Assembly: GCF_000354175.2 (NCBI RefSeq)
Contig: NC_022359.1
Location: forward strand, 690,001 to 722,000
From: Vibrio alginolyticus NBRC 15630 = ATCC 17749
GTDB taxonomy: Bacteria > Pseudomonadota > Gammaproteobacteria > Enterobacterales > Vibrionaceae
DNA: 32,000 nt
Reading direction: 5' to 3'
Shown here: positions 6,146 to 25,558 of the stretch, one piece after another
How positions within the stretch are numbered: position 1 is the first letter of the stretch
Layout: the number at the start of each line of letters is the position of its first letter
Notes under the pieces: model-generated
The model's database searches: none
The model's input: the letters and a program-made list of their open reading frames with translations, nothing else
What the model was told of the DNA's origin: nothing
Program-made: the position numbers and the translations under genes

Positions 6146-7456
6146 ATGACCACCAAACTATTTTCTTCCCGCATCATTCAAAGCGCTTTGGATTTCGATG
6201 TCTACAAAGTCAATATGATGAGTGCTGTAACAGCGCTTTACCCTGATGCGATGGTGTCATATAAGTTTATCGTGCGCAGTGAGGAAGACCTTTCTGAGCT
6301 TTTGCCTGAGGTAAAAGCCGAAGTCCTTAAACTGCAAGATATTCAATTTACGCAAGAAGAAATTGAATATATTAAGCGTGTCGCGCCTTACCTGAATCCT
6401 GACTTTGTTGATGCACTGCGCCATTTCCGTTTCAACCCACAAAGCGATGTCTCTTTCCATAACAAAGCCATGGCTGATGGCTCAAGCCAGTTAAGAATTA
6501 CTATTAACGGTTTGTGGCGAGATACCATCTTGTACGAAACGATCATCATGAGCATCGTGTCTGAAGTTCGTAGCCGTCAGCGTTGGTCAGATATCCCTGT
6601 TGTGCAATTTACCACTGTTTTAGAAGAGAAAGTTCGGCACCTAAAGTCGGAACTAAAACGTCGTAACATCACTAACTTTAAATTTTCTGACATGTCGACG
6701 CGTCGACGTTTTTCCTTCCAAGCTCAGCGCACTATGCTGGAATATTTGTGCCAGGAAGTGCCGGAATGTTTGACAGGAACAAGCAACTATCACTTAGCAA
6801 AAGAGCTAAACTTGACGCCTATCGGCACCGTTGCTCATGAATGGTTTATGGGACACCAAGCTCTGGTGAATGTGCGAGATTCGCAAAAAGTGGCGTTGCA
6901 ACGTTGGCAAAAAATGTTTAATGGTGCACTAGGCATTGCGTTAACCGATACGATTGGTATCGATGCTTTCCTTAAAGACTTTGATGAAGAACTAAGTAAC
7001 GCGTACTTCGGTGTACGTCACGATAGTGGTTGCCCTTATAGCTGGGGTGAAAAAATGATTGCACACTACCAGTCACTGAATATAGACCCATTAACAAAAA
7101 CACTGGTGTTTACCGACGGACTTAACTTCGAACAAGCGTTAGATATTTGCGAGTATTTCCAAGGACGTATTCAGGTGAGTTTTGGTATCGGTACTTTTCT
7201 TGCCAATGATATGGGTGATTATGTCAATAAAGATGGTGAAGCCTACCAGCCACTTTCTATCGTGATAAAAATGGTCACGTGCAATGGTTCACCGGTCGCC
7301 AAAATCAGTGACGAACCTGAGAAAGCCATGTGTGAAGATATCTTCTTTTTGATGAATCTCAAGCGCCGCTTTGAACAACCTCTTGATTTAAATGAGTGTC
7401 GTAAAATGATCGATCGTTTAGAAACTGAAGGTCAAAATTATCTCATTGACGCGTAG
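6146..7456 (+). CDS. pncB: Nicotinate phosphoribosyltransferase PncB
   Basis: 'SALDFDVYKVNMM', 'GTVAHEWFM' and 'GVRHDSG' motifs and about 436 aa. ATG at 6146 is preceded by GAAGGG. The ORF-track start at 6068 would cover one operator-like repeat copy (6096-6111) and lie just downstream of the other (6041-6055). Confidence 0.9.
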   Translation: MTTKLFSSRIIQSALDFDVYKVNMMSAVTALYPDAMVSYKFIVRSEEDLSELLPEVKAEVLKLQDIQFTQEEIEYIKRVAPYLNPDFVDALRHFRFNPQSDVSFHNKAMADGSSQLRITINGLWRDTILYETIIMSIVSEVRSRQRWSDIPVVQFTTVLEEKVRHLKSELKRRNITNFKFSDMSTRRRFSFQAQRTMLEYLCQEVPECLTGTSNYHLAKELNLTPIGTVAHEWFMGHQALVNVRDSQKVALQRWQKMFNGALGIALTDTIGIDAFLKDFDEELSNAYFGVRHDSGCPYSWGEKMIAHYQSLNIDPLTKTLVFTDGLNFEQALDICEYFQGRIQVSFGIGTFLANDMGDYVNKDGEAYQPLSIVIKMVTCNGSPVAKISDEPEKAMCEDIFFLMNLKRRFEQPLDLNECRKMIDRLETEGQNYLIDA

Positions 7457-16240: not shown

Positions 16241-17470
16241 CTAAGAAACGTTATTGAAGCTTGAGCGTGAAGTGCCTCGTTTTGTGCTTCGTTGATCAGA
16301 AAACAGCTCCGCAATAACCTGACGATTTAATTCGCCTTTCAAATGGCCGTGCTCATCGATGACGGGCAGTGAATGTTCACACGACATGACTTCAGTCAGC
16401 ACTTGCTCAATGGCTAAATGTGGAGAGATGATAGGCACCTCTTCATAGATATCATCACGCCAATCTGATATATGAGTTAACTTCGCTGCGTTTAGCAATC
16501 CTTGCTGTGTTATCACGCCTTGATAGCCTGCATTGGTCTCATGGTAGGCATAATCACGTTTAACACGTTTCATTTCACTTAGTGCATCTTCAATGGTTTC
16601 AGCGCGAACACAGTACGAAGGTGGCTGCATCAGCGTTTCGACTGTCAGTGCTCGCGCTCTATTGACGTCTTTTACAAAGGCTTCAACGTACTCATCGGCA
16701 GGATGCAGTAAAATTTCGTCTGGTGAACCTTGTTGGACAAGTTCACCGTCTTTAAGAATCGCGATGCGATCGCCAAGTCGAAGCGCTTCATCTAAATCAT
16801 GAGTAATGAAAATAATGGTTTTGTGCAGCTTCTGTTGCAGCTCTACCAGCTGATCTTGCATTTCGCTCCGAATCAGAGGGTCCAATGCTGAAAAAGCCTC
16901 GTCCATCAACAGTATTTCGGCGTCGGTAGCCAGTGCCCGTGCAAGGCCCACACGCTGTTGCTGTCCACCCGATAGTTGAGCAGGATACTGGTGCTTATAA
17001 CCCGTCAGTCCAACGGTTTCTAACCATTCATTTGCTTTTTCTAAGCGCGCCTCTTTATTCATTCCCTGAACTTCCAAACCATATGCGATGTTGTCGATAA
17101 CAGTGCGATGAGGCAGCAAACCAAAGCGCTGGAACACCATAGACATCTTGTGACGGCGAAACTGTTCAAGCTCTTTGTTCGAAAGTTGCATGACATCCAC
17201 CCCTTCTACCAAAATCTGCCCCATGGTTGGATCGATTAATCGGTTGAAGTGGCGAATCATGGTGGATTTTCCAGAACCGGATAATCCCATAATGACAAAA
17301 ATTTCACCCTTTTGAATTTGCAGGTTGATGTCTTTTAGTCCGACCGTGTGGCCCGTTTCCGTTAAAACCTGCTCTTTACTATGTCCCAACTTAACGCGCT
17401 CAATCACGCTATTGGGCTTGGGGCCGAAGATTTTATACAGACCGCTGATTTCGATAAGTGGACTAGTCAT
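16241..17470 (-). CDS. proV: Glycine betaine/proline-type ABC transporter ATPase (ProV/OpuAA) with C-terminal CBS pair
   Basis: Walker A 'GLSGSGKST', signature 'LSGGQQQRV', Walker B 'LLMDEAFSALD', and a CBS-like C-terminus. Overlaps proW by 8 nt. Confidence 0.9.
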   Translation of the reverse strand: MTSPLIEISGLYKIFGPKPNSVIERVKLGHSKEQVLTETGHTVGLKDINLQIQKGEIFVIMGLSGSGKSTMIRHFNRLIDPTMGQILVEGVDVMQLSNKELEQFRRHKMSMVFQRFGLLPHRTVIDNIAYGLEVQGMNKEARLEKANEWLETVGLTGYKHQYPAQLSGGQQQRVGLARALATDAEILLMDEAFSALDPLIRSEMQDQLVELQQKLHKTIIFITHDLDEALRLGDRIAILKDGELVQQGSPDEILLHPADEYVEAFVKDVNRARALTVETLMQPPSYCVRAETIEDALSEMKRVKRDYAYHETNAGYQGVITQQGLLNAAKLTHISDWRDDIYEEVPIISPHLAIEQVLTEVMSCEHSLPVIDEHGHLKGELNRQVIAELFSDQRSTKRGTSRSSFNNVS

Positions 17471-18362
17471 GTTTTGAGTCTCCTAAATGAGCTTGAGTGC
17501 GTTTCGCATACGCTTGTGAAGCACGATCAAAAAGGATTGCTAGGGCGACAATTGCTAAACCATTGAGAAGACCAAGAGTGAAATATTGATTGGTAATAGA
17601 CTTTAGAACAGGCTGACCTAAACCTTTTACCCCAATCATTGATGCGATGACCACCATTGACAGTGCCATCATGATCGTTTGGTTAATTCCCGCCATGATG
17701 GTTGGCATTGCAAGCGGAAGCTGAACCCCAAAAAGCCGTTGCCGAGTGCTGGCACCAAATGCGGTTGCGGCTTCCAATACTTCTTTATCAACTAGACGAA
17801 TGCCCAAATTGGTTAAACGAATAACCGGTGGAATCGCGTAGATCACTACTGCAATAAGGCCAGGAATTTTCCCGATGCCCAATAACATCACAACTGGAAT
17901 GAGATACACAAATGCCGGCATGGTCTGCATGACGTCGAGTAATGGTGTTACCACCGACTGAATGCGATTAGAGCGCGCCATAGCGATACCGATAGGGATA
18001 CCGAGTGCAATGGCAAGCATGGTACACACAGTGATGATACTGAGCGTGCGCATAGTGTCTTCCCACATTCCGAAATAGCCAATCAGAATCAGCGAACCAA
18101 AACATGCAGCGGCCAGTTTCCAAGAGCGGCTGGCGGCATAAACGAGAGTGGTGCAGACACCTAAAATAATGAACCAAGGTGTAGAAATCAGAAGTTTTTC
18201 AAACCAGACAAGAAACGCAAGGAGCGGATCAAACAGAGACTCAATGAGTTCACCATACTCGCGAGAGAAATCTCTGTAGGCGCCGTCGAGTGTTTTGCGA
18301 ATCGCCCTGAGATCAGAGGCATCCATTTCCGGGAATTCGCTGAGCCAATTTGAGTCAGACAT
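17463..18362 (-). CDS. proW: Glycine betaine/proline-type ABC transporter permease (ProW/OpuAB)
   Basis: BPD-type permease with an EAA-loop region 'EAATAFGASTRQRLFGVQLPLAMPTIMAG'. SD AAGGAAG lies upstream of the ATG at 18362. Confidence 0.9.
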   Translation of the reverse strand: MSDSNWLSEFPEMDASDLRAIRKTLDGAYRDFSREYGELIESLFDPLLAFLVWFEKLLISTPWFIILGVCTTLVYAASRSWKLAAACFGSLILIGYFGMWEDTMRTLSIITVCTMLAIALGIPIGIAMARSNRIQSVVTPLLDVMQTMPAFVYLIPVVMLLGIGKIPGLIAVVIYAIPPVIRLTNLGIRLVDKEVLEAATAFGASTRQRLFGVQLPLAMPTIMAGINQTIMMALSMVVIASMIGVKGLGQPVLKSITNQYFTLGLLNGLAIVALAILFDRASQAYAKRTQAHLGDSKHD

Positions 18363-18576: not shown

Positions 18577-18782
18577 TGCTTGGATTATAGTTTTTCTTCT
18601 TCAATAAAATGAACACATTAGCGTGTATTTGTATGAAAAATCTGCGCAAATTAACGTTTTTATTATCCGGTTAATTAGAATTGATCTTTTTGCTCGTTTG
18701 TCATCGAAATTTCTAAATTATTAGATGTCTAATTAATGCTGATGTATTACGTATTTGTCGTGTTGATTTTTGCAAACTTAGT

Positions 18783-18820
18783 TTATTGGCATATGCTAAA
18801 AATGTTATTGGCATATGCCA
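18783..18820. promoter_or_regulatory. Tandem operator-like palindromes (2 x TTATTGGCATATGC; cores TGGCATATGCTA and TGGCATATGCCA)
   Basis: A 14-bp direct repeat at 18783-18796 and 18805-18818, 22 bp apart. The second core (18809-18820) is a perfect 12-bp palindrome and the first is 11/12. They overlap a plausible sigma70 promoter (TTGCAA 18770-18775, 16-nt spacer, TATGCT 18792-18797), 40-75 bp upstream of the DUF134 gene. Confidence 0.45.
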
Positions 18821-18858
18821 GTTTAAGGCGTAATTTGACTCTGTGTTTTTGAGGGACA

Positions 18859-19152
18859 ATGATGGCAAGACCAAAGATAGAAAGACGAATATGCGGACGT
18901 GCGGCTCACCACTGCTTTAAGCCCAATGGCATTCCATTTAATCAGTTGGAGCAAGTCGCCATATTACCAGAAGAGTTAGAAGCGCTACGTTTAGCCGACT
19001 TAGAGGGGCTTAGCCAGCAGCAAGCTGCGGAGCAGATGGGCGTTTCTAGACAAACTTTTGGTAACACAGTAAAAAGTGCAAGATTGAAAGTCGCAAAAAG
19101 TTTAGTTGAAGGTCATGCATTAGTTTTTCCGAATGAGGAGTCAAACTTATGA
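18859..19152 (+). CDS. DUF134/UPF0251-family predicted DNA-binding protein
   Basis: 'RPKIERRICG....CFKPNG' N-terminus and a sigma-70-region-4-like HTH 'LSQQQAAEQMGVSRQTFGNTVKSARLKVAKSL'. The stop overlaps the next start (ATGA). Confidence 0.8.
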   Translation: MMARPKIERRICGRAAHHCFKPNGIPFNQLEQVAILPEELEALRLADLEGLSQQQAAEQMGVSRQTFGNTVKSARLKVAKSLVEGHALVFPNEESNL

Positions 19153-19655
19153 TTTATGCTATTCCTAATGATGGTGAGCGGGTGGCAAACCACTTTGTAA
19201 AAGCACCATACATCGCTATTTATTCTGATACTGACGGTATGCTAAAAAACTTAGCGAACATTGCTTCTATGCCACAAGCGGGTTGTAATGCGAAGTCTCA
19301 GTTGATTCAGTCTCTACAAGGGTACAATGTGGATGCTGTTCTTGTGCGAAATATTGGTGAACGTGTATTGGCAAAGCTACTTAGCAGTGGCACGCCAGTA
19401 TTTAGGCTGTCTACTCGTAGTTCATTGGAAGATGTGCTTGCGGTTCCAAGAGAGCCTTTGATTGAGCCCTCTCAAGGACGCCCATCAAACAATCATAAGA
19501 AAAGTGTTCACAAACAAAAAGGCGGCTGCGGCTCCTGTGGTTGTGGTGGCCAAAAATCAAAAACCTCCTTGTTGGCAAGACCTAAAGCGCTACTCAAAGC
19601 AACATCTAGCCCTGCTATACTTAAGCTAGAGTCGATGGCTAATAAGGCAGGTTAA
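19149..19655 (+). CDS. NifX/NifB-C-type (dinitrogenase FeMo-cofactor-binding fold) protein with Cys-rich basic C-terminal tail
   Basis: 'MIYAIPNDGERVANHFVKAPYIAIY...GYNVDAVLVRNIGERVLAKLLSSGTPVF' matches the family pattern. The tail contains GGCGSCGCGG (19521-19550). Confidence 0.75.
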   Translation: MIYAIPNDGERVANHFVKAPYIAIYSDTDGMLKNLANIASMPQAGCNAKSQLIQSLQGYNVDAVLVRNIGERVLAKLLSSGTPVFRLSTRSSLEDVLAVPREPLIEPSQGRPSNNHKKSVHKQKGGCGSCGCGGQKSKTSLLARPKALLKATSSPAILKLESMANKAG

Positions 19656-19656
19656 T

Positions 19657-19866
19657 ATGGTTTGGTTATTTACCTTTCTTGGTTTTCTCGCAATCATTTT
19701 GTTGATGTCACTTGGCGTCATTTTTCATAACAAGCGTATTCAAGGAAGTTGCGGCGGTCTAAACAACGTCGGTGTTGATAAAGTATGCAACTGCGAAACC
19801 TCATGCGCAGAACCTGAAAGGCGTTTATATCAAATCTCAGAACCTAACTCATCACCTGAGCGCTAA
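19657..19866 (+). CDS. nqrM: NqrM-like (DUF539) single-TM 4-Cys miniprotein
   Basis: N-terminal TM helix, then 'IQGSCGG' and 'VCNCETSC', the four-Cys layout I recall for Na+-NQR maturation factor NqrM. Starts 1 nt after the preceding stop. The symbol denotes a family-level paralogue only. Confidence 0.65.
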   Translation: MVWLFTFLGFLAIILLMSLGVIFHNKRIQGSCGGLNNVGVDKVCNCETSCAEPERRLYQISEPNSSPER

Positions 19867-20656
19867 GGCTTTTGGCCCATTGCGGCAAGGTTTGCCGAAA
19901 CCAGTCCAAATACTTGCTGGTCTGCGGATTCTCTCTGGAGACCAGTATGTTGACTACCTCGACAACGATCCACGCTTTTGCTAGTCCGATATCGCGCGCC
20001 AATTCTGTTGTTTCACCTTTCTCTGCGCACTTTATATATTTGTCTGCTACGTTCAAGTAATCATCAAATGTGCCCATGCCCTCGATGAGCGGTGCTAAAT
20101 CTATCGCGACATGCCCTGTAGAAAAGCGCTCCCAGTCGAACAGCACCAGCTCGCCATTTTCGCGCTGTCCCCAGTTTCCTGCATTGGTGTCTCCGGAGAT
20201 CAAGTTCTGCCTATCAAAAAGGTGCGCCGATCGTTGTTGTAGCTGGTGGAAGAACTGTTCTGTCTCTGAGCCCAGTTTAAGTGTAGTGAGTGCTTGTTGA
20301 GTCGCTTGTGGTATCCACTGGTGGCGGTGATAAACACCATCTGATGTTGGTGGAAGTCGGTGCAGTTTGACGAGTTGTTCAATGACTCGATCATCTTCAA
20401 GTAAGAATGCTTGCTCGACTGCGTGGGGAACGTATTCAATGTACAGAACGTTTTTCTGGTCGTCGAGTTGAATCAAGCGCGGTACGTGTATTCCAAGCGC
20501 GTTAAACTGTTCGGCATAGCGTTGATAAAACGCGACTTCTATTTGAGTAGGGTTACGTTTTTCTATTACTTGGACGCCATCTTTTTCGATGAGAAAAACT
20601 TTGGCACTGCCCATTTGGTTGAGTTCTTGCTGCGACACCGGACTTCCTGTCTTCAT
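19844..20656 (-). CDS. Phosphotransferase (APH/choline-kinase-like) family protein
   Basis: Kinase-fold motifs 'LISGDTNAGNW' (Brenner-like xGDxxxxN) and 'LFDWERF'. The start is uncertain (ATG 20656 versus TTG 20710). The 3' end overlaps the nqrM-like gene by 23 nt. Confidence 0.65.
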   Translation of the reverse strand: MKTGSPVSQQELNQMGSAKVFLIEKDGVQVIEKRNPTQIEVAFYQRYAEQFNALGIHVPRLIQLDDQKNVLYIEYVPHAVEQAFLLEDDRVIEQLVKLHRLPPTSDGVYHRHQWIPQATQQALTTLKLGSETEQFFHQLQQRSAHLFDRQNLISGDTNAGNWGQRENGELVLFDWERFSTGHVAIDLAPLIEGMGTFDDYLNVADKYIKCAEKGETTELARDIGLAKAWIVVEVVNILVSRENPQTSKYLDWFRQTLPQWAKSLSAQVMS

Positions 20657-20843
20657 GTAGAGAGAGCTCACCTTAATCGCTGCACTCACGTTTGCCAATA
20701 GCCACGACAAAGTGCCTCAAAAATATTAAATGCAACTGTTTAAATATGATTTTGTCGTTGGTGTCTAAATTTTACACAGTTACGCCTGTACTCCGATAAA
20801 TTCGTTCTACGCTTACTATTCGTCTTAATAAAGGAGAACCAAA

Positions 20844-21113: not shown

Positions 21114-23138
21114 TTAACCTTGTTGTGTACTGCCTTGGCAGACCTGTTTTTGCACTGCTGGTGGCGCAGGCTCGTAATGGCTTAAGGTCATACTAAAGCT
21201 GCCTTCACCACCAGTGATAGAGCGTAATCGACGAGCGTAATCTTGCAGCTCGTTTACAGGTGACTTGGCTCTGAGTAAGGTGAAGCTGCTGTCGATTGGC
21301 TCGGTGCCTTCGATTAAGCCTCGGTTTCCAGATAAATCTCCAGAAACATCGCCAACGTTCGCGGTTGGGATGTGCAGTTCCATCTGGACAATGGGTTCTA
21401 GCACAATAGGATCTGCGTTGTTAATCGCATCTAAAAAGGCTTTCTTACCTGCGATGACAAACGCAATTTCTTTCGAATCGACGGAGTGATATTTACCGTC
21501 ATAAACGGTGACTTCCACATCCTTAATTGGGTTGCCAGAAATCGCGCCTTCCTCTAACGCTTGCAAAATACCTTTTTCTACAGCAGGAATGAGCGCGGTT
21601 GGAATGGCGCCACCCACCACTTTGTTGATGAACTTAAATCCGGCACCACGTTCGAGTGGACGAACCTTCAATTGCACTTCACCAAACTGGCCTGCACCGC
21701 CACTTTGTTTTTTGTGTCGATAATGCCCTTCGGCAGGTTTGGTGATGGTTTCAAAGTATTCGACGCTTGGTTGGCAGGTTTCGACGTCCAGTTTGTACAC
21801 GTTCGCCATCTTTTCTAATGCGACTTTGAGGTGAAACTCCCCTTGGCCGCTGATGATGGTTTCGTTGGTGCGAGCGCGATGTTCGATGCGCAGAGAAGGG
21901 TCTTCACTGGCAATTTTATTCAGCACATCTCCTAATTTTTGCTCATCTCCACGCTTAAGAGGCTTCAAGCACAAAGAATACATGGAGTCAGGAAGGTCCA
22001 ACGTTTTGAGTTGAACACCATCTTCTTCGTGAGAGTCATGAACGATTGAATCGAATTCGAGATCATCCACTTTGGCTAAAACGCAGAAGTCGCCCGCAAG
22101 CGCGCGAGGGATCTCGGTTCTATCTTTGCCCTGCAGTTGATATAAGTGCCCAACTTTAAATGCCTTGTTGCTTTCGCCAATATAAAGCTGGCTGCCCGCA
22201 TTGATTTCACCCTGATACACACGTAAGTAGGCAAGTTTTCCCATATATGGGTCGACGCTGACTTTGTACACGTGTGCGACGGTGTGCTCTAAGGTTTCGC
22301 AATTTACTTTGATTTTTTTGCCGTTCTTTTCCAGTAGAGGAGGGTTACCCTCGTTTGGCATGGGCATGATCTCCGCCAAGGTGCGCAGCAGCAACTCGAC
22401 GCCCGCGCCGGTTTGTCCTGAGACAAAACAGACCGGAATCACATGTCCAGTTCTCAGTGCTTCTTCAAACGGATCATGCAGTTGCTCTGCGGTGAGTTCG
22501 GAGCCTTGTTCCAGATACAGTTCCATCAGTTCTTCATCGACTTCGATGACTTGGTCAATTAAGGTCTCATGAGCTTCATCTACCGTTGCAAGTAAGGTTT
22601 CTCGTCCCAATTCTGGTTCGAAATAGCAGTCAACTACAGATTCCCCGTCAGCCGAAGGTAAGTTGATCGGCAAGCAGTGGTCACCAAAATGCTCAACGAT
22701 GTTCTCCATCAATCTTTCTAACTGATTACCGTGGTTATCGAGCTTATTGATAATGATCATCTGACATTTTTGCTGCTCTTTAGCAAAGGTGAATAAGCGA
22801 TCGGAAGTTTGGTTAAGTGGGGTTTGAGGGTCGATGACAAGGGCAGATGTTTCAACGGCAGGAAAAACGCTGATAGTACGGCCAAGTAACTCGTTTTGTC
22901 CCGGAGTGTCGATGATATTGAGCCGGTGTTTATTCCAGCGCAGTGCTACTGGCGTTGCTTCAATACTGTGTTGATATTGGATGGATTGAGGGTCGAAGTC
23001 GGTAACGGTATCGCCTTTTTCTACGCTGCCTAAATGGTGCGTGGCATCGCAGGTGAAGAGCAGTTTTTCTATCAGCGTGGTTTTACCGGTCCCGGTTTGG
23101 CCGACAAAAGCGATATTGCGTATTTTGTTGATAGGCAT
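21114..23138 (-). CDS. Elongation factor G-like translational GTPase paralogue (divergent G domain)
   Basis: Five-domain EF-G length. Motifs: G1 'GQTGTGKT', G3 'DTPGQ', G4 'NKLD', domain IV 'DGKYHSVDSKE', domain V 'SPVNELQDYARRLRSITGGEGSF'. ATG at 23138 is preceded by AAGGAGG. Confidence 0.85.
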   Translation of the reverse strand: MPINKIRNIAFVGQTGTGKTTLIEKLLFTCDATHHLGSVEKGDTVTDFDPQSIQYQHSIEATPVALRWNKHRLNIIDTPGQNELLGRTISVFPAVETSALVIDPQTPLNQTSDRLFTFAKEQQKCQMIIINKLDNHGNQLERLMENIVEHFGDHCLPINLPSADGESVVDCYFEPELGRETLLATVDEAHETLIDQVIEVDEELMELYLEQGSELTAEQLHDPFEEALRTGHVIPVCFVSGQTGAGVELLLRTLAEIMPMPNEGNPPLLEKNGKKIKVNCETLEHTVAHVYKVSVDPYMGKLAYLRVYQGEINAGSQLYIGESNKAFKVGHLYQLQGKDRTEIPRALAGDFCVLAKVDDLEFDSIVHDSHEEDGVQLKTLDLPDSMYSLCLKPLKRGDEQKLGDVLNKIASEDPSLRIEHRARTNETIISGQGEFHLKVALEKMANVYKLDVETCQPSVEYFETITKPAEGHYRHKKQSGGAGQFGEVQLKVRPLERGAGFKFINKVVGGAIPTALIPAVEKGILQALEEGAISGNPIKDVEVTVYDGKYHSVDSKEIAFVIAGKKAFLDAINNADPIVLEPIVQMELHIPTANVGDVSGDLSGNRGLIEGTEPIDSSFTLLRAKSPVNELQDYARRLRSITGGEGSFSMTLSHYEPAPPAVQKQVCQGSTQQG

Positions 23139-23388
23139 AGAGCCTCCTTGCAAGATGGCGTGAAAAACCTACGAATTGCTAGGAAGTGGGTTGTTATAGA
23201 AACCCACGCACTGCATTGGAGTAGGGCGGGATTACCGCCTATTCGTTTTCCACGTCATTTTCCGGATGACTCGATGCATAAGACCACCTTCTTGGACTAC
23301 TGGAATCTTAGCATGCCTCAATAACCATATAATTTATGTGACTTATTTCATGATGGGGCTGATTGTTTTTTAATCGAGATCATAAACT

Positions 23389-24474: not shown

Positions 24475-25479
24475 TTAAATCGTAAGGAGCCTATCTGCAA
24501 CCGCATCAACGCCAAAACGTACAGGGTCGGTGACGGGCACTTGGTATTTGTCGCTCCAATCCTGGCATAACTGGGCAGCATCTTCTTCGCTGAGCGCCGA
24601 AGTGTTTAAGCAAATACCCACTAATTGAGCGTTTGGATTTGTTAGGCGAGCAGCGGCCAGATTCGCTTCTATCGTTTGTTCAATGGTTGGCAAGCTCGCA
24701 TGTGGTAAGTTGCGGATGTGCGGGCGACCAATCTCATGGCACAGTATCAGAGCGTCAGCTTGTGCGCCGTGAAGTAAGCCCAAACTTACGCCAGCAAACG
24801 AAGGGTTAAATAACGAACCTTGCCCTTCGATGATGTCCCAATCGTGATCGGTGAACTCAGGGCTGATCGTTTCTACTGCGCCGGAGATAAAATCGGCAAC
24901 TACGGCATCAATTGAAATGCCACTGCCTGCGATGAGAATTCCAGTTTGACCCGTTGCTTTGAACTCTGCGCGACAGTTTTTACGCTTTAATGTGTGCTCA
25001 ATGGCGAGGGCAGAGTACATTTTGCCAACGGAGCAATCTGTTCCTACAGTAAGTACTCGCTTGCCTGCGCGAGCTTTGCCATTGCCGACCTTGAGCGGGG
25101 CATCATAATGGCGAACATCATACAGTTTGGTTAATCCGCGTTGTTCTAGATCGGCAAGAGGAGAAAGTTCCGCCAAACGTTGGTGCATGCCCGATGCAAT
25201 TTCAAATCCCATCTCTGCCGCTTCAAGTAAGGTTGCTTGCCAAGCTTCGGGAATGACGCCTCCTGGATTTGCCGTGCCGAGCACCAGCGTTTTTGCTCCT
25301 TGCTGCTGCGCTTGTTGTAGTGTCATGTCGGTTAAACCAAGCGATACGGTTTCTGGCGTCAGGCGGATTTGGCCAAGACAAATCTCAGGTCGCCATTGGT
25401 ATATGCCACGCGCGGTTTTTGCTGCGAGTGGATCGGTTACATCGCCAAGAAAGAGTAGGTAAGGTTGAGCAATTTGCAT
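24475..25479 (-). CDS. dgcN: DUF1611-family protein (candidate D-glutamate N-acetyltransferase DgcN)
   Basis: 'VGTDCSVGKMYSA' P-loop-like motif and a ~334 aa length typical of DUF1611. ATG at 25479 is preceded by GAAGGGAA. Confidence 0.65.
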   Translation of the reverse strand: MQIAQPYLLFLGDVTDPLAAKTARGIYQWRPEICLGQIRLTPETVSLGLTDMTLQQAQQQGAKTLVLGTANPGGVIPEAWQATLLEAAEMGFEIASGMHQRLAELSPLADLEQRGLTKLYDVRHYDAPLKVGNGKARAGKRVLTVGTDCSVGKMYSALAIEHTLKRKNCRAEFKATGQTGILIAGSGISIDAVVADFISGAVETISPEFTDHDWDIIEGQGSLFNPSFAGVSLGLLHGAQADALILCHEIGRPHIRNLPHASLPTIEQTIEANLAAARLTNPNAQLVGICLNTSALSEEDAAQLCQDWSDKYQVPVTDPVRFGVDAVADRLLTI

Positions 25480-25558
25480 GATGGTTCCCTTCGTCATCGT
25501 TATTGCTCATTAATGTAGCCAGACTGATTTAGGAAACCGAATGCTTATTTGTTAGGCA

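Follow-up and report, generated by a model that had tools for sequence, protein, structure and literature searches.

In Vibrio cholerae and Vibrio natriegens, canonical nqrM is part of the nqr operon, where it follows apbE on the larger chromosome; its product presumably supplies NqrD/E with Fe or Fe-S (PMC12174285, PMC6209661). What, then, is a gene of the same family doing on chromosome 2 of Vibrio alginolyticus, as the last of three closely packed plus-strand genes inside the 32,000-nucleotide stretch of DNA analysed here (the window)? Gene 1 (18862-19152, +) encodes a short-form DUF134/UPF0251 regulator of 96 residues, gene 2 (19149-19655, +) is an open reading frame for a Nitro_FeMo-Co protein with the NifX fold, and gene 3 (19657-19866, +) encodes a 69-residue NqrM paralog of a type that we call NqrM2. 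The answer that we propose, to which we give an even chance, is that the trio may be an autoregulated operon in which DUF134 would be the repressor, the gene 2 product a carrier resembling IssA, and NqrM2 the protein that hands the cargo over to the NQR membrane site.

Judged by their junctions, the three genes form a translationally tight operon. Genes 1 and 2 share an ATGA overlap (19149-19152), genes 2 and 3 are separated by the single nucleotide 19656, and the open reading frames have the coordinates given for them in a preliminary description of this DNA. The junctions of -4 and +1 nucleotides in the window range from -4 to +24 nucleotides over all lineages compared. An alternative in-frame ATG for gene 1 is found at 18859; we placed the start at 18862 because orthologs begin with MARPK and a GAGGGA Shine-Dalgarno sequence (18851-18856) fits this position. 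The three family placements that had been suggested were borne out by profile search, each above the curated Pfam threshold: gene 1 matched DUF134 (PF02001; 7.7e-21, 74.9 bits, cutoff 27), gene 2 Nitro_FeMo-Co (PF02579; 1.3e-14, 54.7 bits, cutoff 26.3, residues 8-98), and gene 3 NqrM (PF04400; 8.5e-18, 64.3 bits, cutoff 22, residues 21-62). An NCBIfam search of the three products returned nothing specific beyond Pfam. Proteins identical to those of the trio occur in hundreds of assemblies, where they are named “DUF134 domain-containing (UPF0251) protein”, “NifB/NifX family molybdenum-iron cluster-binding protein”, and “(Na+)-NQR maturation NqrM”. All three families are already named, NCBI calls gene 3 simply NqrM, and neither a new fold nor a new family is involved. 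The 90%-identity protein cluster containing gene 3 also contains 166-residue NifX-like sequences (junction 19653-19659), suggesting that a read-through or fusion product somewhere bridges the one-nucleotide gap.

Hydropathy and sequence confirmed the gene 3 product as a 69-residue protein with a single transmembrane helix and a four-cysteine layout. The helix comprises residues 1-23 (19657-19725, +; Kyte-Doolittle >2), with 19-residue means of 2.1-2.65 for segments starting at residues 1-7 and mostly negative values, never >0.24, from residue 19. The motif GSCGG...CNCETSC (19750-19806, +) contributes C32, C44, C46, and C50, which are invariant or nearly so in the alignments, and the transmembrane helix is likewise kept in the subfamily. 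On these and the following motifs, gene 3 can be placed in a separate subfamily of NqrM, which is NqrM2. Canonical members carry CxCxxPC and a long basic tail, whereas C(N/D)CETxC of the NqrM2 type is soon followed by LYQIxEP and then by the end of the protein; the signature reads LYQISEP in gene 3 (19825-19845, +). The NqrM family is small; clustering at 50% identity leaves 196 representatives, and at 90% there are 4,919 clusters. Over the 148 representatives used for motif counts, CxCxxPC was present in 54 and LYQIxEP in 11, with both in a single one, and the best 120 profile matches of gene 3 were all of the NqrM2 type.

The subfamily also stands apart in its genomic context. No nqr or apbE gene was found within ±10 kb of gene 3, nor near NqrM2 in the other contexts inspected. 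Wherever upstream DNA was available in the inspected loci, NqrM2 immediately follows a NifX-like gene, except in Celerinatantimonas neptuna (L041), where a lone NqrM2 gene has no NifX-like or DUF134 gene in 8 kb on either side. V. natriegens carries the trio, and canonical apbE-nqrM follows nqr on its chromosome 1 (PMC6209661), giving this species two NqrM-type genes. The earlier claim of an NqrM-like gene unlinked to nqr was therefore upheld, and gene 3 is best regarded as a sequence-distinct extra paralog, not a relocated housekeeping copy, the canonical copy being documented only in V. natriegens and V. cholerae. A genome scan with gene 3-specific patterns, which are too narrow for the canonical type, returned only NqrM2 loci and no canonical nqrM. 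In the V. alginolyticus genome CP054701.1, a 10-bp deletion in the codons of the transmembrane helix (L006 10553-10705, equivalent to ~19700-19712 of the window) causes a frameshift, and the gene is uncalled; such a frameshift would be surprising in the sole NqrM of a Vibrio. Further truncated or chimeric gene 3 products are present in public data (P0046, P0054, P0066, and P0067).

We modeled the gene 2 product with AlphaFold from a 19-sequence alignment, obtaining a per-residue confidence (pLDDT) of >90 for residues 1-118 and <50 in the tail from residue 119. The globular NifX/NafY-fold domain (residues 1-118; 19149-19502, +) contains the invariant core Cys46, a VRNIGER motif, and an SQGRPSxxH segment. 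Foldseek matched it to TM1816, TM1290, Ta1041m, MJ0327, PH0822, the NafY core, NifX, and orange protein (PDB matches 1o13, 1rdu, 2re2, 1p90, 9ian_F, and 2wfb) with E-values of 1e-5 to 1e-3 and target-normalised TM-scores of 0.6-0.7. The disordered tail (residues 119-168) and the stop codon occupy 19503-19655 (+). The C-terminal 60 residues, counted from Gln109, have an isoelectric point (pI) of 10.4, a net charge of +11, 3 Cys, and 8 Gly. The stretch GGCGSCGCGG, to which attention had been drawn, is indeed located at residues 125-134 (19521-19550); as an exact string it is not conserved among orthologs, whereas the Cys-rich cationic character of the tail is. Over all lineages, the tails contain 1-4 Cys and hardly any acidic residues, at a pI of 9.9-11.3 and a net charge of +3 to +11, with lengths of 13-62 residues among the orthologs analysed. 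SQGRPSxxHxxKGGC is invariant in Harveyi-clade orthologs, and conservation in the wider subfamily is limited to C46 of the core, the VRxIG motif, and a patch rich in Cys near the C-terminus. Two residues of a candidate site considered for H15, C46, H116, and C127, namely H116 and C127, are not conserved in this wider subfamily. Some orthologs have His-rich tails, with 11 His in V. agarilyticus, and the Psychromonas protein has only 123 residues, including a tail of 13.

The original assignment of gene 2 to a NifX/NifB-C type thus holds for the fold and the Pfam match, but the closer analogue is IssA rather than NifX. IssA of Pyrococcus furiosus joins a 109-residue IPR003731 domain to a disordered cationic tail of 70 residues, 14 of them aromatic, which contains one Cys and binds anionic thioferrate; the protein is produced only under plentiful iron and sulfide, and an uncharacterised mesophilic “IssX” clade has high-pI, Gly-rich tails (PMC5524996). 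As modeled, gene 2 has this IssA architecture, a NifX fold followed by a disordered, cationic, Cys-containing tail. No nif genes were found in the window or in any related locus inspected. The Nitro_FeMo-Co domain of Desulfovibrio MrpORP binds a [3Fe-4S] cluster via Cys/His motifs (PMC6345978), and from the precedents of IssA and MrpORP a simple iron-sulfur species would be a more credible cargo than a nitrogenase-type cofactor. FeMo-co or NifB-co as the cargo of gene 2 is implausible.

Co-conservation of the three genes in other genomes, as had been anticipated, was found in Vibrio and Aliivibrio. A scan of one genome per species with gene 3 gave 21 loci, and by tblastn the trio was intact and side by side in 21/21 of these reference-species loci, including V. 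diabolicus, V. harveyi chromosome 2 (L011), V. owensii, V. rotiferianus, V. jasicida, V. hepatarius, V. nereis, V. agarilyticus, V. scophthalmi, Aliivibrio fischeri ES114 chromosome I, and others. The flanking genes vary between clades; a constant trio with differing flanks indicates a real, mobile unit. The DUF134 gene is inverted downstream of the NifX-like/NqrM2 pair in V. scophthalmi and in a set of metagenomic contigs, and the pair occurs with no DUF134 gene at the locus in a minority of V. cholerae strains, throughout V. fluvialis, in another Vibrio group, on a V. diazotrophicus-like contig, and in Psychromonas. Linkage to nif or rnf was absent from the two diazotroph-related contexts. 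In V. scophthalmi, tandem GTTGCTTG / GTTGCTTA octamer repeats stand right after gene 3 and before the inverted DUF134 gene (L026 8190-8290).

As first reported, TTATTGGCATATGC is present twice upstream of gene 1 (18783-18796 and 18805-18818), and two 12-bp palindromes, one perfect (12/12) and one matching at 11/12, lie 22 bp apart. The predicted distal operator is the 11/12 palindrome TGGCATATGCTA (18787-18798; extended context TTTATTGGCATATGCTAAAAAT), and the predicted proximal operator is the perfect palindrome TGGCATATGCCA (18809-18820), for which the extended family consensus is ATTATTGGCATATGCCAATAAT; neither is assigned to a strand. A single perfect 12-bp palindrome is unremarkable, since the window contains 9 and its shuffled versions 9.2 on average, whereas a perfect palindrome together with a copy of ≤1 mismatch within 40 bp was seen in 0 of 300 dinucleotide shuffles. 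The pair, at a spacing of 22-23 bp and with ≤1 mismatch in each palindrome, is kept from Vibrio to Aliivibrio, while the adjacent DNA has diverged; the proximal palindrome of V. nereis has 2 mismatches, and V. hepatarius retains a single palindrome. In 16 of the 18 species-labelled loci with DUF134 as the first gene of the operon, the proximal site is preceded by another at a distance of 22-23 bp. This second site is absent from all loci where DUF134 is not the first gene, which have a single site. Two sites where DUF134 heads the operon and one elsewhere would fit autoregulation.

Sites of this kind are rare outside the module. In the genome-derived loci (533 kb), those with ≤1 mismatch are confined to the front of the module, including DUF134-less NifX-like/NqrM2 pairs and the lone Celerinatantimonas NqrM2 gene. 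In the latter (Candidatus Celerinatantimonas neptuna, L041 7964-8207), TGGCATATGCTA lies 37 nucleotides upstream of the start codon. The total fetched DNA surveyed for TGGCATATGCCA amounts to about 860 kb, in which nearly all occurrences precede DUF134, NifX-like, or NqrM2 genes and the background is essentially zero. In the window, TGGTATATGCCA (25397-25408) matches the operator at 11/12 positions inside a DUF1611-family gene (24475-25497, -) and is probably a chance occurrence, being a lone site in coding sequence. Other types of site were considered for the palindrome and rejected: a sigma-54 promoter (TGGCAC-N5-TTGCA) has a different GG-to-GC spacing, LuxR/HapR-type sites agree with it in the outer TTATTG...CAATAA but span 2 bp more, and the GntR-type site TGGT-N3-ACCA is also spaced differently.

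The association extends well beyond Vibrionaceae. A metagenome scan with the DUF134 alignment, using a pattern that included the recognition helix QTFGN[TIA]VK, yielded 80 loci at 48-100% identity, 79 of which were used for site counts. The palindrome lies ≤120 nucleotides upstream of the DUF134 start in 44/79 loci, and the 120-nucleotide upstream segments (9.5 kb) contain 51 sites, against 12 in the other 318 kb. Eleven of these 12 lie just upstream of a NifX-like gene to which DUF134 is convergent, and the remaining one is at -131. Long-form DUF134 genes precede NifX-like genes in the metagenomic loci; for those without NqrM, the palindrome was upstream of 31/45, which are among the 44, mostly 26-31 nucleotides before the start codon. 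Across lineages that are very distant, the palindrome tracks DUF134 whether or not NqrM, and in some cases a NifX-like gene, is present. Because the palindrome precedes DUF134 genes even in such distant relatives lacking NqrM, DUF134 very probably binds the TGGCATATGCCA operator. The proposal that DUF134 regulates its own operon at the palindromes has gained strong comparative support, from the conserved site pairs as well as from the co-occurrence of site and DUF134 in genomes and metagenomes.

Some of the distant loci are elaborate. Under the same operator, L083 (3001-6043) contains DUF134, a NifX-like gene, a MinD-type 4Fe-4S ATPase gene, and another NifX-like gene, a cluster of the ORP type; the ATPase is a MinD/CbiA protein of 603 residues with four 4Fe-4S motifs. 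In L087 (2983-4924) and L105 (3001-4615), the palindrome and a long-form DUF134 gene head NifX-like clusters that also encode either a regulator of the Fur family or a “metal chelation” protein of the DUF364 family.

A recurring promoter geometry coincides with the proximal operator. In the window, a predicted -35 element TTGGCA (18808-18813, +; 5/6 match) lies inside it, followed after 17 nucleotides by a predicted -10 element TAATTT (18831-18836, +), which keeps A2 and T6. This arrangement, with TTGGCA in the proximal palindrome and, 17 nucleotides further on, a -10-like hexamer that has A2 and T6, recurs in 19/22 loci from about 8 lineages, the spacer being 18 nucleotides long in one locus; the equivalent -10 hexamers are TATACT in A. 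fischeri, TATAGT in V. scophthalmi, and CAAAAT in V. cholerae and V. fluvialis. The operon promoter thus probably uses the -35 element inside the proximal palindrome. The promoter put forward in the preliminary description, TTGCAA-16 nt-TATGCT (18770-18797, +), is probably wrong: it depends on the distal palindrome, so that lineages with a single operator cannot have it, and its TTGCAA (or CTGCAA) is conserved in Vibrio loci only and absent in Aliivibrio. A consensus promoter scan of the window reported neither candidate. Whichever promoter is used, its core elements are overlapped by the operators, an arrangement that speaks for repression. The V. natriegens-related group (L010 ~7130-7200; L009, L016, L017, and L038) has ~40 extra nucleotides between the operator/promoter and the DUF134 start, making a longer leader, and that of L010 holds tandem CTTGGAGTT repeats.

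The architecture of gene 1 is compatible with such a role. An N-terminal RP...FKPxG arm is followed by a sigma-70-region-4-like helix-turn-helix (HTH) at about residues 30-85, seen also in a secondary Pfam match to Sigma70_r4_2 (1.4e-7), and each operator half-site TTGGCA resembles a -35 hexamer. The modeled core superposes on region 4 of extracytoplasmic function (ECF) sigma factors at 1.2-1.6 Å over about 57 residues; the model, a modest single-sequence AlphaFold prediction that leaves the Cys arm unmodeled, also matches the KorA/ArdK repressors. A sequence search of the PDB found no DUF134 structure, and a literature search on DUF134/UPF0251/COG1342 returned nothing relevant, the family having no assigned function; mentions of “DUF134x” in iron papers were false leads, matching by name prefix. 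In the N-terminal RICGRAAHHCFKPNG singled out earlier, Cys11 (18892-18894, +) and Cys18 (18913-18915, +) are invariant in 17/17 Vibrionaceae orthologs compared, but its two His are not conserved. Sensing of Fe-S or thiol status by DUF134 is plausible, and the suggested Cys-based sensor is credible for Vibrionaceae, where the Cys pair is conserved; it does not carry over to distant DUF134 proteins, in which these Cys have moved or been lost. Long-form DUF134 proteins have about 113-170 residues, most of them with a C-terminal CxxC...CPxC module and often with a Gly/Arg tail. This module (e.g., L110 3001-3468) gives a weak Zn_ribbon_8 match, and the tail that often follows it is cationic and Gly/Arg-rich. 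In Vibrio, the cationic Cys-containing tail is on the NifX-like partner instead.

From these elements we propose the following mechanism. Short DUF134 would bind as dimers to the two TGGCATATGCCA palindromes, two helical turns apart. With the -35 TTGGCA inside the proximal palindrome, bound DUF134 would shut the promoter and thereby act as the repressor of its own operon. Probably, the invariant Cys11 and Cys18 in the N-terminal arm would sense the signal, be it the occupancy of an Fe-S site or the redox state of thiols. Once the repressor is off the DNA, the products of genes 2 and 3 would be made in a fixed proportion via translational coupling. The gene 2 product may be a cytoplasmic NifX-fold holder of iron or a simple iron-sulfur species. 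NqrM2, a single-pass membrane protein, would take this cargo on its four Cys and, by analogy with canonical NqrM, insert it into an intramembrane Cys4 site. For such delivery of metal or Fe-S to a membrane complex, the likeliest target would be the NqrD/E centre of Na+-NQR, for which the module would provide a conditional second maturation route.

Several observations weigh against this proposal. The predicted -10 element TAATTT is weak, matching the consensus at 3/6 positions. The link to the operator covers DUF134 proteins sharing the QTFGN[TIA]VK helix, which was part of the scan pattern, and the N-terminal Cys shift position within the 14-residue arm, or vanish, in long-form DUF134. The operator is also kept before NifX-like/NqrM2 pairs with no DUF134 gene nearby: V. 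cholerae and the P0050 group have none over a distance of 5 kb, the V. diazotrophicus-like locus and Celerinatantimonas none over 8 kb, and V. fluvialis none over 10 kb. In these cases the binder would have to be encoded elsewhere or be another protein. The gene 2 tail in the window has no W, F, or Y, and orthologs have 0-5 aromatic residues. The frameshifted gene 3 in one V. alginolyticus strain implies that the gene is dispensable. In the work of Kostyrko and colleagues of 2016, a V. harveyi nqrM mutant reportedly had no functional Na+-NQR; V. harveyi carries the trio, and NqrM2 would then be no substitute for canonical NqrM in laboratory conditions. This phenotype fits repression of the operon and a different target of NqrM2 equally well.

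A different target is the essence of the alternative that survives best, although we regard it as unlikely. The operon and its regulation would be the same, but NqrM2 and the NifX-like protein would mature another complex, the best candidate being the RnfA/RnfE centre of RNF. A distinct subfamily with its own LYQIxEP signature and a dedicated partner suggests a distinct client, and so does the V. harveyi nqrM mutant that is said to be unrescued by its resident trio. The canonical nqrM is moreover retained in sister species (PMC6209661), and RNF and NQR have homologous membrane subunits and cofactors (PMC12174285). Against this, the inspected loci show no linkage of the module to rnf, nif, or any other gene for a candidate client. 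Organisms with RNF but without NQR are not known to have an NqrM, and RNF would thus not generally need such a factor.

Delivery might also be absent altogether. In a distinctly unlikely alternative, the gene 2 product would be an IssA-like store that buffers iron and sulfide or another thiophilic metal, with NqrM2 as its membrane anchor or nucleator and DUF134 inducing the operon when iron and sulfide are abundant. The architecture described above, an IPR003731 domain with a disordered high-pI tail and few Cys, would suit this, as would the mesophilic IssX clade with its high-pI, Gly-rich tails (PMC5524996), the production of IssA solely when iron and sulfide are abundant, and the His-rich tails of some orthologs (that of V. 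agarilyticus with 11 His), which resemble metal-buffering tails. The tails are, however, short (13-62 residues, and 13 in Psychromonas) and lack IssA-type aromatics, and a protein that is strictly paired and translationally coupled with a member of the NqrM family would sooner be expected to hand its cargo on than to store it in bulk.

It is very improbable that an unlinked transcription factor binds the palindromes and that DUF134 is an accessory or scaffold of the carrier system, as proposed for Orp5. This would explain why V. cholerae, V. fluvialis, the P0050 group, and Celerinatantimonas keep the operator although a DUF134 gene is missing from the adjoining 5-10 kb, and Orp5 was reported in a protein complex (PMC6345978). 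The site nevertheless follows DUF134 genes across very distant lineages, without NqrM and sometimes without NifX-like genes, and it is doubled in 16/18 DUF134-first loci and in none of the others. Furthermore, the HTH of DUF134 is clearly sigma-region-4/KorA-like, and the Psychromonas NifX-like/NqrM2 pair has neither DUF134 nor the palindrome. Finally, the frameshift in one V. alginolyticus strain, the truncated or chimeric variants in public data, and the clade-variable flanks expected of a mobile unit would fit a redundant or decaying, horizontally acquired and largely dispensable nqrM copy with hitch-hiking neighbours, but this is extremely doubtful given that the trio or pair is maintained in Vibrio, Aliivibrio, Psychromonas, and related metagenomic lineages, that the invariant Cys, the signature, the operator, the promoter geometry, and the tight junctions are all conserved, and that the exact proteins occur in hundreds of assemblies.

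We thus retain the autoregulated operon with hand-off to NQR as our working proposal, and tentatively consider a broader one, which we think possible rather than probable. DUF134/UPF0251 may be a widespread family of autoregulators sensing Fe-S/thiol status, whose members with the SRQTFGN helix share TGGCATATGCCA and control NifX-fold carriers; in Vibrionaceae, such a circuit would have captured a specialised NqrM paralog to become a second, conditionally expressed loading pathway for the Na+-NQR or RNF centre, with an IssA-like carrier feeding NqrM2. As far as our literature search shows, the NifX-linked NqrM2 subfamily with its signature, the IssA-like reading of its partner, and a conserved operator pointing to a probable function and regulon of DUF134 are new. 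In Vibrio and many pathogens, Na+-NQR serves as the principal respiratory sodium pump; work on it as a drug target is under way, and the loading of its intramembrane iron centre is known only as needing NqrM. If the proposal is true, a separately regulated second NqrM with a soluble partner would be the first handle on the source of this iron or cluster. DUF134 would be provided with a specific DNA motif and with a common thread to its regulon, namely genes for NifX-fold carriers and ORP-type clusters, and the non-nitrogenase NifX-fold proteins of ordinary aerobes would be tied to the IssA/ORP iron-sulfur trafficking of anaerobes.

The neighbours of the trio in the window bear no relation to respiration or Fe-S biogenesis. 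Upstream lies a divergent pair encoding a ProW/ProV-like ATP-binding cassette (ABC) permease and ATPase (16241-18362, -), which has no adjoining gene for a substrate-binding protein. Downstream, a convergent APH-family phosphotransferase (kinase) gene (19844-20710, -) overlaps the 3' end of gene 3 with its own 3' end by 23 nucleotides (19844-19866). A terminator scan found none after gene 3, and there is no terminator-like hairpin between gene 3 and the APH-family gene. A full-length EF-G paralog (21114-23153, -) follows further downstream on the same segment of chromosome 2. An Rfam search of the window gave no match.

The three products can each be set beside known systems. Gene 3 resembles canonical NqrM (DUF539) in its Pfam match, its length of ~70 residues, the single N-terminal transmembrane helix, and GSCGG...CxCxxxC. 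Canonical NqrM is, however, encoded after nqrF-apbE and combines CxCxxPC with a long basic tail, whereas gene 3 lies on chromosome 2 unlinked to nqr/apbE, has CNCETxC and a short C-terminus with LYQIxEP, and is partnered with a NifX-like gene under a predicted DUF134 operator.

Gene 1 is, like IscR, NsrR, and RsrR or KorA and ArdK, a small HTH protein encoded first in its own operon, and shares with them palindromic (here predicted) operators over the promoter and conserved Cys that could ligate a cluster. Unlike IscR, NsrR, and RsrR, it is unrelated to the Rrf2 family and has only two Cys per monomer, in the N-terminal arm. In the Desulfovibrio ORP clusters (Orp5, the Orp3/Orp4 ATPases, Orp8, and MrpORP), DUF134 genes would likewise stand before NifX-fold genes, and Orp5 was reported to be homologous to a [2Fe-2S]-binding protein (PMC6345978, PMC8359166). 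These clusters have MinD/Mrp ATPases and sigma-54/OrpR control, whereas the Vibrio module has neither and contains an NqrM paralog instead; a MinD/Mrp-type Fe-S ATPase is absent from the window and present in the distant relative L083, the gene order of which matches orp5-orp4-orp3. Orp5 is taken to be a COG1342 (DUF134) protein, a putative identity that agrees with this synteny.

Gene 2 has its fold in common with NifX, NafY, the NifB C-terminal domain, TM1290, TM1816, MJ0327, and PH0822, but has no nif genes nearby and possesses an invariant core Cys and a cationic Cys tail, which they lack. With IssA (PF2025) it shares the IPR003731 domain and a disordered, high-pI tail with few Cys, which likewise keeps its chemistry rather than its sequence and is Gly-rich in most Vibrio orthologs. 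The likeness is one of architecture only: the tail of gene 2 is shorter, has no aromatics, and contains several Cys or, in some species, His. The host of gene 2 is a mesophilic facultative aerobe, in which this putative iron-sulfur carrier is coupled to a membrane NqrM paralog.

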